Shown here piece after piece: positions 13,485 to 50,306 of a stretch of DNA of 64,000 bases. Each line of letters begins with the position of its first letter. Position 1 is the stretch's first letter. The DNA lies in the NCBI RefSeq assembly GCF_046105845.1, contig NZ_CP151004.1; one strand, written 5' to 3'. The position numbers and the translations under genes are program-made. This DNA comes from Escherichia coli. Its GTDB lineage: Bacteria; Pseudomonadota; Gammaproteobacteria; Enterobacterales; Enterobacteriaceae. Below the pieces are notes generated by a model. That model did not search any database. It was given only the letters and a program-made list of their open reading frames with translations, and was not told the DNA's origin.

Positions 13485-13500
13485 TTTTTCTATTCATCAT

Positions 13501-13525
13501 CTTGCCGTGCTGCTGGCACGGCAAG
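13501..13525 (+). terminator. Stable hairpin downstream of purC (terminator-like, no U-tract)
   Basis: cttgccgtgc-tgctg-gcacggcaag, perfect 10 bp stem 17 bp after purC stop; no T-run follows. Confidence 0.4.
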
Positions 13526-13651
13526 ACAACCGCTCTCATAAGATGTGCATTGAACGCTCATTCCTCCGCCATTTCATCCCGCTTTCCTGTGGTAATCTTC
13601 CTCTGAACCACCTACGATCATTTCTATAATGAATATATTGTTGAGGTATCT

Positions 13652-19613: not shown

Positions 19614-19648
19614 AAAAAGGCGACACATTGGCATGTCGCCTTTTTTAT
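19614..19648. terminator. Bidirectional intrinsic terminator between ypfM (+) and acrD (-)
   Basis: aaaaaggcgacacattggcatgtcgcctttttt: GC stem flanked by A-run and T-run, directly after acrD stop (19652). Confidence 0.8.
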
Positions 19649-34287: not shown

Positions 34288-34321
34288 CGCTTACCCTGAA
34301 TATTCAGGGTAAGCGGTTTTC
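34288..34321 (+). terminator. Intrinsic terminator of maeB
   Basis: cgcttaccctga-atat-tcagggtaagcg, perfect 12 bp stem, followed by gtttt. Confidence 0.85.
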
Positions 34322-47127: not shown

Positions 47128-47787
47128 ATGCCAGCTTTAGATTTGATTCGACCGTCGGTAACCGCCATGCGGGTGATTGCCTCCGTTAACGCCGAATTTG
47201 CGCGTGAACTGAAATTGCCGCCGCATATTCGTAGCCTTGGGCTGATTTCTGCCGACTCCGATGACGTAACCTACATTGCGGCTGACGAAGCGACCAAGCA
47301 GGCGATGGTCGAAGTGGTGTATGGCCGCTCGCTGTATGCGGGAGCTGCACACGGACCGTCACCGACTGCCGGTGAAGTGCTGATTATGCTCGGTGGGCCA
47401 AACCCGGCGGAAGTGCGTGCTGGTCTGGATGCGATGGTTGCGCATATTGAAAATGGCGCGGCTTTCCAGTGGGCTAATGATGCGCAAGATACGGCATTCC
47501 TGGCACATGTAGTTTCGCGTACCGGTTCTTATCTCTCATCAACCGCCGGGATCACGCTTGGCGATCCGATGGCGTATCTGGTGGCACCGCCGCTGGAAGC
47601 GACCTACGGCATTGATGCAGCCCTGAAATCTGCCGACGTACAGCTGGTGACCTATGTCCCGCCGCCGTCTGAAACCAACTACTCGGCAGCATTTTTAACC
47701 GGTAGCCAGGCCGCGTGTAAAGCAGCCTGTAACGCCTTTACCGATGCAGTGCTGGAAATCGCGCGTAATCCAATCCAGCGTGCGTAA
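47128..47787 (+). CDS. eutL: Microcompartment shell protein EutL (tandem BMC domain)
   Basis: 219 aa ([38 protein letters not shown]...). Confidence 0.94.
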
Positions 47788-47799
47788 CGGAGGTTGCCG

Positions 47800-48300
47800 A
47801 TGATCAATGCACTGGGATTGCTGGAAGTGGACGGCATGGTCGCCGCGATAGATGCAGCTGATGCCATGCTCAAAGCAGCTAACGTTCGTCTGCTCAGTCA
47901 CGAAGTGCTTGACCCTGGTCGCCTAACGCTGGTGGTGGAAGGCGATCTGGCGGCGTGTCGTGCGGCGCTGGACGCAGGTTGTGCTGCCGCGATGCGTACC
48001 GGGCGTGTCATCAGCCGTAAGGAGATCGGTCGGCCAGACGATGACACCCAGTGGCTGGTTACTGGCTTTAACCGCCAGCCGAAGCAACCCGTAAAGGAAC
48101 CCGACGCGCCAGTTATCGTCGCGGAATCTGCTGACGAGTTGTTGGCGCTGTTAACATCAGTACGTCAGGGAATGACGGCAGGAGAAGTGGCAGCCCACTT
48201 TGGCTGGCCGCTCGAAAAAGCCAGAAATGCGCTCGAACAGCTCTTTTCTGCCGGGACGTTACGTAAACGCAGTAGTCGTTATCGTCTCAAGCCCCATTAA
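47800..48300 (+). CDS. eutK: Microcompartment shell protein EutK (BMC domain plus C-terminal helix-turn-helix-like tail)
   Basis: 166 aa from ATG 47800 with GGAGG 6 nt upstream; MINALGLLEVDGMVAAIDAADAMLKAANV. Confidence 0.93.
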   Translation: MINALGLLEVDGMVAAIDAADAMLKAANVRLLSHEVLDPGRLTLVVEGDLAACRAALDAGCAAAMRTGRVISRKEIGRPDDDTQWLVTGFNRQPKQPVKEPDAPVIVAESADELLALLTSVRQGMTAGEVAAHFGWPLEKARNALEQLFSAGTLRKRSSRYRLKPH

Positions 48301-48311
48301 CCTGTCGGAGG

Positions 48312-48337
48312 TGCCGGGTGTCCTACAACACCCGGCA
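48312..48337 (+). promoter_or_regulatory. Perfect 10 bp stem-loop in the eutR translation initiation region
   Basis: tgccgggtgt-cctaca-acacccggca; GGAGG immediately upstream (48307..48311) and eutR ATG 8 nt downstream (48346). Confidence 0.55.
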
Positions 48338-48345
48338 TTAACATC

Positions 48346-49398
48346 ATGAAAAAGACCCGTACAGCCAATTTGCACCATCTTTATCATGAACCCTTACCCG
48401 AAAACCTGAAGCTCACGCCGAAGGTCGAAGTGGATAATGTTCATCAACGACAGACAACGGATGTCTATGAACATGCTTTGACGATTACCGCCTGGCAGCA
48501 GATTTACGATCAGCTGCATCCGGGCAAGTTTCATGGTGAATTTACGGAAATTCTACTCGATGATATTCAGGTTTTTCGTGAATACACCGGTCTGGCGCTG
48601 CGTCAGTCGTGCCTGGTCTGGCCGAACTCGTTCTGGTTTGGCATTCCGGCGACGCGCGGTGAGCAGGGATTTATCGGTTCGCAATGTTTGGGAAGCGCAG
48701 AAATTGCGACGCGCCCTGGCGGCACCGAGTTTGAATTAAGTACGCCGGACGATTACACGATCCTGGGCGTAGTGCTTTCTGAAGATGTCATCACCCGTCA
48801 GGCTAACTTTTTGCATAATCCGGATCGGGTATTACATATGCTGCGTAGCCAGTCGGCGCTGGAAGTGAAAGAACAGCATAAAGCCGCGCTGTGGGGCTTT
48901 GTCCAACAGGCGCTGGCGACATTTTGCGAGAACCCGGAAAATCTTCATCAGCCTGCTGTGCGTAAAGTGCTGGGGGATAATTTGCTAATGGCGATGGGGG
49001 CGATGCTGGAAGAAGCGCAGCCAATGGTGACGGCGGAAAGCATCAGTCATCAGAGTTACCGTAGATTACTTTCCCGCGCCCGTGAATATGTGCTGGAAAA
49101 TATGTCTGAGCCGGTGACGGTGCTGGACTTGTGTAATCAACTGCATGTCAGCCGCCGCACGCTACAAAACGCGTTTCACGCTATTTTAGGCATTGGCCCA
49201 AATGCGTGGCTGAAACGCATTCGCCTGAACGCCGTACGCCGCGAACTGATAAGCCCTTGGTCGCAAAGCACAACGGTAAAAGACGCAGCCATGCAGTGGG
49301 GATTCTGGCATCTGGGGCAATTCGCCACGGATTATCAGCAACTGTTTGCCGAGAAGCCGTCACTGACGCTGCATCAGCGGATGCGGGAATGGGGGTGA
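48346..49398 (+). CDS. eutR: AraC-family transcriptional activator of the eut operon, EutR
   Basis: 350 aa; C-terminal AraC-type helix-turn-helix region. Confidence 0.94.
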
Positions 49399-49403
49399 GG
49401 GAG

Positions 49404-50306
<903 letters not shown>

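Follow-up and report, generated by a model that had tools for sequence, protein, structure and literature searches.

A conserved RNA hairpin between eutK and eutR of Escherichia coli as part of a candidate split ribosome-binding site for the activator EutR

The junction between eutK and eutR of the eut operon was analysed in a stretch of Escherichia coli DNA of 64,000 nucleotides (nt) (contig NZ_CP151004.1), referred to below as the window. Both genes, and the elements between them, lie on the + strand. The coding sequence of eutK (47800..48300) specifies 166 amino acids (aa) with a BMC domain and an EutK_C domain; Pfam lists EutK_C for EutK orthologues, and PDB entry 3i71 matches EutK residues 108-166. 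Its TAA stop codon (48298-48300) stands 11 nt ahead of a hairpin that we call H1. The spacer between the two genes is 45 nt long and contains GGAGG (48307-48311), the sole Shine-Dalgarno (SD)-like motif upstream of eutR, which abuts the 5' base of H1. The hairpin itself (48312..48337) is a perfect stem of 10 base pairs (bp) with a 6-nt loop, and is made up of the 5' arm TGCCGGGTGT (48312-48321), the loop CCTACA (48322-48327) and the 3' arm ACACCCGGCA (48328-48337). It is followed by an A/U-rich single-stranded tail of 8 nt (TTAACATC, 48338-48345) that holds no SD-like motif, and then by the ATG (48346-48348) of eutR (48346..49398), which encodes an AraC-family activator of 350 aa. The open reading frame (ORF) opened by this ATG is EutR according to the RefSeq annotation, and the N-terminus that begins there (MKK...) is conserved. 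A second hairpin, H2 (48344..48389), is predicted to span the eutR AUG and to pair it with codons 11-15. A preliminary description of this DNA had placed GGAGG, the 10-bp stem, the 6-nt loop, the 8-nt tail and the ATG at 48346, and on the sequence all of these coordinates are correct. Of 5426 complete E. coli genomes, 5416 match the 250 nt around the hairpin, almost always with an identity of 99% or more and at a median of one place per genome; the annotations over these matches are eutK and eutR. In the curated MG1655 record no feature is annotated within the 45-nt spacer.

H1 is predicted to be unusually stable. The 48-nt RNA stretch around it has a folding energy of -23.6 kcal/mol (z = -4.43), a value not reached by any of 200 dinucleotide shuffles. 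Two additional G·U pairs are possible in the minimum-energy structure, between the final two G of GGAGG and the UU at the start of the tail. A search of the window for perfect hairpins (stem of at least 10 bp, loop of 3-8 nt) returned seven raw hits, compared with a shuffle mean of 0.48, and these represent four distinct hairpins. The other three lie at 19614-19645, 13500-13526 and 34288-34315; the hairpin at 19614 (AAAAAGGCGACAC...GTCGCCTTTTT) resembles a bidirectional intrinsic terminator. An Rfam scan of 47800-48800 at a permissive threshold yielded chance hits but no family match; the best hits reached 14-16 bits, compared with gathering scores of 37-50.

We compared the eutR loci of 63 genomes and of 12 further contigs picked by EutR identity. 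The same architecture, built from different stem sequences, is present in Escherichia (including E. whittamii), Salmonella enterica and S. arizonae, and the architecture recurs in the Citrobacter freundii, amalonaticus and sedlakii groups, in Klebsiella oxytoca, michiganensis, grimontii and spallanzanii, and in Pluralibacter, Pseudocitrobacter, Phytobacter and two further Enterobacteriaceae. Aligning whole spacers with MAFFT and folding the alignment with RNAalifold recovered only the outer seven pairs, because stem and loop lengths differ. This alignment was therefore replaced by one in which the register is counted from the stem base over 12 nt per side, with no gaps required; an earlier version of the register alignment covered 17 sequences. 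Among 20 distinct hairpins, 93.2% of the cells hold standard pairs, compared with 35-43% when the partners are slid by 1-3 columns. Six of the 11 pairs are altered on both sides, in a total of 35 cells. The covariation score is 0.473 compared with 0.216 in shuffles, and none of 500 shuffles reaches the observed value.

The individual substitutions illustrate how the helix is kept. Pair 7 occurs as U-A, A-U, C-G or G·U, and pair 10 as C-G, G-C or U-A. The near-invariant stem base GCCGG/CCGGC is changed in a compensated manner to GUCGG/CCGAC in Phytobacter and to GCCGA/UCGGC in a further lineage (L071). Within Escherichia, sequences differ either in their loops (CCTACA, CATATA, CGTACA) or by compensated exchanges such as T-A to C-G in E. 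whittamii. The non-Watson-Crick cells comprise 30 G·U and 3 A·C. Because G·U exceeds A·C by 30 to 3, the selected object is the sense (+) transcript, and the same asymmetry rules out a DNA-level palindrome or an antisense RNA. Covariation among relatives had been named at the outset as a check on the stem; the stem is conserved and it covaries. We conclude from this comparison that H1 is under selection as a structured RNA and did not arise by chance.

The position of the SD motif was examined by calculating, for each distinct upstream region, the best duplex with the 3' end of 16S rRNA. In E. coli the best duplex located 2-10 nt before the ATG amounts to -1.7 kcal/mol, compared with -10.6 kcal/mol for GGAGGUG; this interval is devoid of an SD-like motif. 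We define the core clade as those loci whose EutR is at least 84% identical to that of E. coli, plus ESL0689 at 77%. All core sequences have a best duplex of only -0.9 to -3.0 kcal/mol in the 2-10 nt before the start codon. Their distal GGAGG, abutting the 5' base of the stem, gives -9.5 to -10.6 kcal/mol; two core lineages (L067 and L071) have a distal GGAG only, at about -6.6 kcal/mol. Every eutR outside the core clade (Buttiauxella, Hafnia, Morganella, Pluralibacter gergoviae, Brenneria, Dickeya, Pectobacterium, Lonsdalea and Samsonia) has a proximal SD of -3.9 to -10.7 kcal/mol, the weakest being those of L048 and L032. Alignment A1, with 25 distinct core sequences, shows no variation in CGGAGG, and all 31 distinct core sequences retain GGAG; the loops, the distal stems and the nearby positions of the spacer do vary.

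The flanks of the hairpin are similarly restricted in the core clade: GGAGG and the stem are 0-1 nt apart, and the start codon follows the stem after 8-11 nt. The hairpin between them measures 20-28 nt, and 77 nt in Intestinirhabdus alba. The linear distance from SD to AUG is 34 nt in E. coli, 32-37 nt in its relatives and approximately 85-86 nt in I. alba (L028). The extended stem-loop of the latter (L028 1412-1500; -50 kcal/mol) still has GGAGG at the base of the helix and an unchanged tail of 9 nt; an inner helix within it, TCAGGCAA/TTGCCTGA, gives the impression that the original loop has received an insertion. Judged from these alignments, the SD of eutR is displaced, not missing, and the geometry of the flanks is constrained while the size of the hairpin varies. 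Such a pattern would be expected of a closed helix that juxtaposes SD and AUG.

These data are consistent with a model in which eutR most likely has a split ribosome-binding site of the kind described for genes 25 and 38 of phage T4, a reading to which we assign a probability of roughly 0.55. With H1 folded, SD and AUG would flank one closed helix, and their effective spacing would be about 8-11 nt and not 34 nt. A 30S subunit, arriving either de novo or after terminating at the eutK stop codon, would anchor on the strong GGAGG and reach the AUG while H1 stays folded and protrudes from the ribosome. Since the SD begins 7 nt past the eutK stop, ribosomes that terminate on eutK may feed the eutR site. 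The AUG, 8-10 nt from the helix base, would be reached once H2 opens. Initiation would probably be inefficient, because the AUG is predicted to lie within this weaker hairpin, and would be of the standby type, so that EutR stays scarce in comparison with the shell proteins and enzymes encoded on the same transcript. The expected outcome is low, structure-dependent synthesis of EutR in proportion to operon transcription, and H1 probably sets how much EutR is made. Output of this kind fits the autoinduction logic of eut, in which P1 is the main promoter and P2 a weak constitutive one (PMC5821096). When the 600 nt upstream of eutR were scanned in 11 species with relaxed sigma-70 criteria, no candidate at a conserved position emerged that would place P2 relative to the hairpin. 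The idea of a split site had already been put forward in the preliminary description; covariation, an invariant GGAG abutting the stem, the absence of a proximal SD in the clade and the fixed tail now add to it, and from these we infer that the ribosome uses the SD across folded H1 and that this sets EutR output.

The closest known counterparts are the two T4 genes. A hairpin shortens the SD spacing from 22 to 5 nt in gene 38 and from 27 to 11 nt in gene 25; the latter site lies at an intercistronic junction, has its hairpin only in close T-even phages and was confirmed by mutagenesis (lacZ fusions) and by dimethyl sulphate probing (PMC3014915; PMC7297116). The eutR site shares with both a distant SD and a hairpin-filled gap, which would be reduced from 34 to 8 nt. 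Like the site of gene 25 it is intercistronic, and its hairpin is found, with compensatory changes, in a derived clade whose distant relatives have ordinary sites. The sequence-level features of a split site are all present at eutR: an SD more than about 15 nt from the start codon, a spacer filled by a hairpin that would leave SD and AUG at an effective distance within about 5-13 nt, no canonical alternative and conservation by compensatory change. Unlike the T4 genes, eutR is a cellular, chromosomal regulator gene, its site is a predicted one, and its start codon is additionally predicted to lie within a second hairpin. A looser parallel is provided by thrS and rpmE of E. coli, where a long stable hairpin is likewise accommodated in the mRNA track of the ribosome and positions the elements of the site. 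In those mRNAs, however, the SD is normally spaced, and the hairpin lies upstream, separates off a single-stranded enhancer and serves as a protein operator, whereas H1 sits between SD and AUG.

H2 pairs UCAUGA.AAAGA, which holds the AUG, with UCUUU.AUCAUGA in codons 11-15 (HLYHE). It folds at -9.7 kcal/mol (z = -4.1) and is predicted in all core sequences except L066 and L067, in each of which both arms are changed. Synonymous variation is almost absent from codons 11-15 throughout the clade; these form a run of five, where only about 20% of codons are that invariant, and a comparable run occurs at eutR codons 48-52. No compensatory change in H2 was seen across the core sequences, and the support for it is weaker than for H1. 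That H2 would sequester the eutR start codon is thus suggestive only. Pairing in H2 would account for the invariance of the TC directly before the ATG; the two lineages that have lost H2 carry TT at this position. In most species the four nucleotides before the ATG read GATC, a Dam methylation site, and in E. coli CATC (48342-48345).

Several observations weigh against a split ribosome-binding site at eutR. The AUG, buried in predicted H2, has an unpaired probability of approximately 0; the central nucleotides of the tail reach about 0.8-1.0. GGAGG is often paired in 200-nt thermodynamic folds. Its predicted partners differ in every species, several of them falling in translated eutK sequence, and a conserved helix that sequesters GGAGG was rejected for this reason. 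The tail and the first eutR codons are A-rich (AAAAGAUCAUGAAAAAGA), and this could support SD-independent initiation. The eutR stem is also longer than those of T4 genes 25 and 38, at 10-13 bp with one 77-nt version of the hairpin, and shared ancestry may account for part of the constancy of the flank lengths. Finally, outgroup eut operons with a full-length eutK (Yokenella L030, L068, L069, L072 and Entomohabitans L070) combine a related GC-rich hairpin with a proximal SD. One of them, L068, has GGAG on the proximal side only and none on the distal side. The hairpin therefore predates the split arrangement, and the primary function of H1 may be unrelated to bridging. Among the same outgroups, GGAG or GGAGG flanks the hairpin on both sides in Yokenella L030 (1459-1502), L069 and L072 (about 756-800), and Entomohabitans L070 has a different hairpin with a G-rich proximal motif. 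Buttiauxella-type operons have a spacer of 19-22 nt, an ordinary SD and no large hairpin. The presence of GGAG on both sides of a hairpin looks like the product of a duplication around an inserted palindrome and may preserve a trace of how the split site originated.

The outgroups are also compatible with a different explanation, which we consider unlikely as the main one but which may well coexist with a split site. H1 would mainly be an intercistronic element for mRNA stability or processing that blocks 3'-to-5' exonucleases and protects the upstream eutS-eutK message once the A/U-rich tail has been cleaved, or that uncouples eutR from the structural genes. Translation of eutR would then proceed without the distal GGAGG, and the displaced SD would be a side effect. 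Repetitive extragenic palindromic (REP) and other intercistronic hairpins stabilize upstream segments, for example at malE-malF. H1 separates structural genes whose products are abundant from a regulator required at a low level, its stem is GC-rich (-17 to -24 kcal/mol) and gives way to an A/U-rich single-stranded tail, and the hairpin is kept in lineages with an ordinary proximal SD, where there is no need for bridging. What this explanation leaves unaccounted for is the invariant GGAG that abuts the stem, the absence of a proximal SD only where a distal one exists, and the stem-to-AUG distance of 8-11 nt. A REP element as such was rejected. H1 is, like REP, a GC-rich palindrome in a transcribed operon spacer near a stop codon, and its head TGCCGGGTG is similar to that of REP (TGCCGGATG). 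Unlike REP it lacks the REP consensus and the flanking GTAG/CTAC, and its stem varies by compensation; the 250-nt region occupies a median of one place per genome (the hairpin alone was not searched genome-wide), and MG1655 carries no repeat annotation here. Intrinsic termination finds no support. The stable, GC-rich stem of H1 and its place after the structural genes would suit an intrinsic terminator or attenuator by which transcripts from the main promoter are kept from running on into eutR, and the preliminary description had offered a termination point as an alternative. No species, however, has a U tract 3' of the stem, nor is there one on either strand; the tails (AUUAACAU, UUAAAAGA, AUAAAAGA, AAAAAGAU) carry 1-4 scattered U within their first 8 nt. 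A promoter and terminator consensus scan of 47700-48700 returned no promoter and no terminator-like site on either strand, and the published model of eut autoinduction needs eutR to be co-transcribed from P1 (PMC5821096). Intrinsic termination at H1 is accordingly barely tenable.

Two further proposals involve EutK. H1 might act on eutK itself, stalling the terminating ribosome and lowering eutK expression so that EutK stays a minor component of the shell. A REP hairpin within 15 nt of a stop codon reportedly stalls the ribosome and lowers expression of the upstream gene, as Liang, Rudd and Deutscher are said to have described in Mol Cell in 2015, and the stem of H1 starts 11 nt past the eutK TAA in E. 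coli and 4-13 nt past it in all hairpin-bearing lineages. This short distance nevertheless follows from a small spacer that has the SD within it. Going by the size of the ribosome footprint, a ribosome with the stop codon in its A site would extend only to about 48309-48311 and would not need to melt the stem. As the displacement of the SD and the constraint on tail length would also go unexplained, we regard this proposal as improbable. The other is that H1 is an operator through which a bound protein modulates translation of eutR, one candidate being EutK with its positively charged helix-turn-helix domain at the C-terminus. That domain has been proposed to bind nucleotides (PMC12487888; PDB 3i71), the stem base GCCGG/CCGGC and the flanking CGGAGG are nearly invariant, and the hairpin is found at the junction only in operons whose eutK carries EutK_C. 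The co-occurrence is, however, confounded by phylogeny, and Buttiauxella-type operons have EutK_C without a large hairpin; base pairs that change by compensation favour shape over sequence. An operator is in our view very improbable. The same very low probability applies to the more specific scheme in which H1 would be the nucleic-acid ligand of this EutK domain: EutK that has yet to enter microcompartments would attach to its own mRNA at the split site and tune EutR translation. If true, binding of EutK to H1 would link assembly of the organelle to the eut positive-feedback loop.

The hairpin also contains potential start codons. In E. coli a GTG at 48318, in the 5' arm and 6 nt past GGAGG, opens a mini-ORF of seven codons (MSYNTRH) whose TAA (48339-48341) ends 4 nt before the eutR ATG. 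We rejected translational coupling through this mini-ORF as a general explanation: in Salmonella the position lacks a start codon, and the start-like codons of the Citrobacter loops occur at chance level. The start of a 129-member protein cluster (P0001) would fit the loss of 1 nt from the 3' arm, by which the GTG becomes joined in frame to eutR. In Klebsiella-type eutR (L066 801-821; L075 801-824), with stems of only about 6 bp, the called start is a TTG or GTG inside the hairpin loop. The called proteins are 357 and 356 aa long, and the conserved MKK start lies 7-8 codons further on. These starts were presumably miscalled because GGAGG lies 8-13 nt upstream of them. The eutK TAA and the eutR ATG of E. 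coli share a reading frame, with 15 sense codons between them (48298-48348); with its spacer of 47 nt, Salmonella does not keep this relation. The database contains a few products (P0057, P0078) that look like EutK-EutR fusions. At its other end eutR (+) converges on hemF (-). Their stop codons end at 49398 and 49404, leaving 5 nt between the ends of the genes (49396-49406). There is no obvious terminator at this junction, and transcription of each gene would run antisense into the other.

A full-text search of the literature found no description of H1 or of eutR translation, although prior mention in older eut papers is possible. If correctly read, eutR would be a case of a split SD in a chromosomal regulator gene with unusually clean comparative support, an arrangement otherwise documented mainly for the two T4 genes. 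Two consequences extend beyond eut. A long distance between SD and AUG need not imply SD-independent initiation, and an SD placed across a hairpin causes gene callers to misplace starts, as with Klebsiella-type eutR. The eut operon contributes to gut colonization and virulence in Salmonella and pathogenic E. coli. Its activator is encoded at the end of the 17-gene operon, drives its own synthesis by positive feedback and competes with ethanolamine ammonia-lyase for adenosylcobalamin (PMC5821096). The amount of EutR made per operon transcript has so far been treated as a transcriptional matter only, governed by promoters P1 and P2. A conserved structure in the eutR initiation region would add a post-transcriptional point of control.

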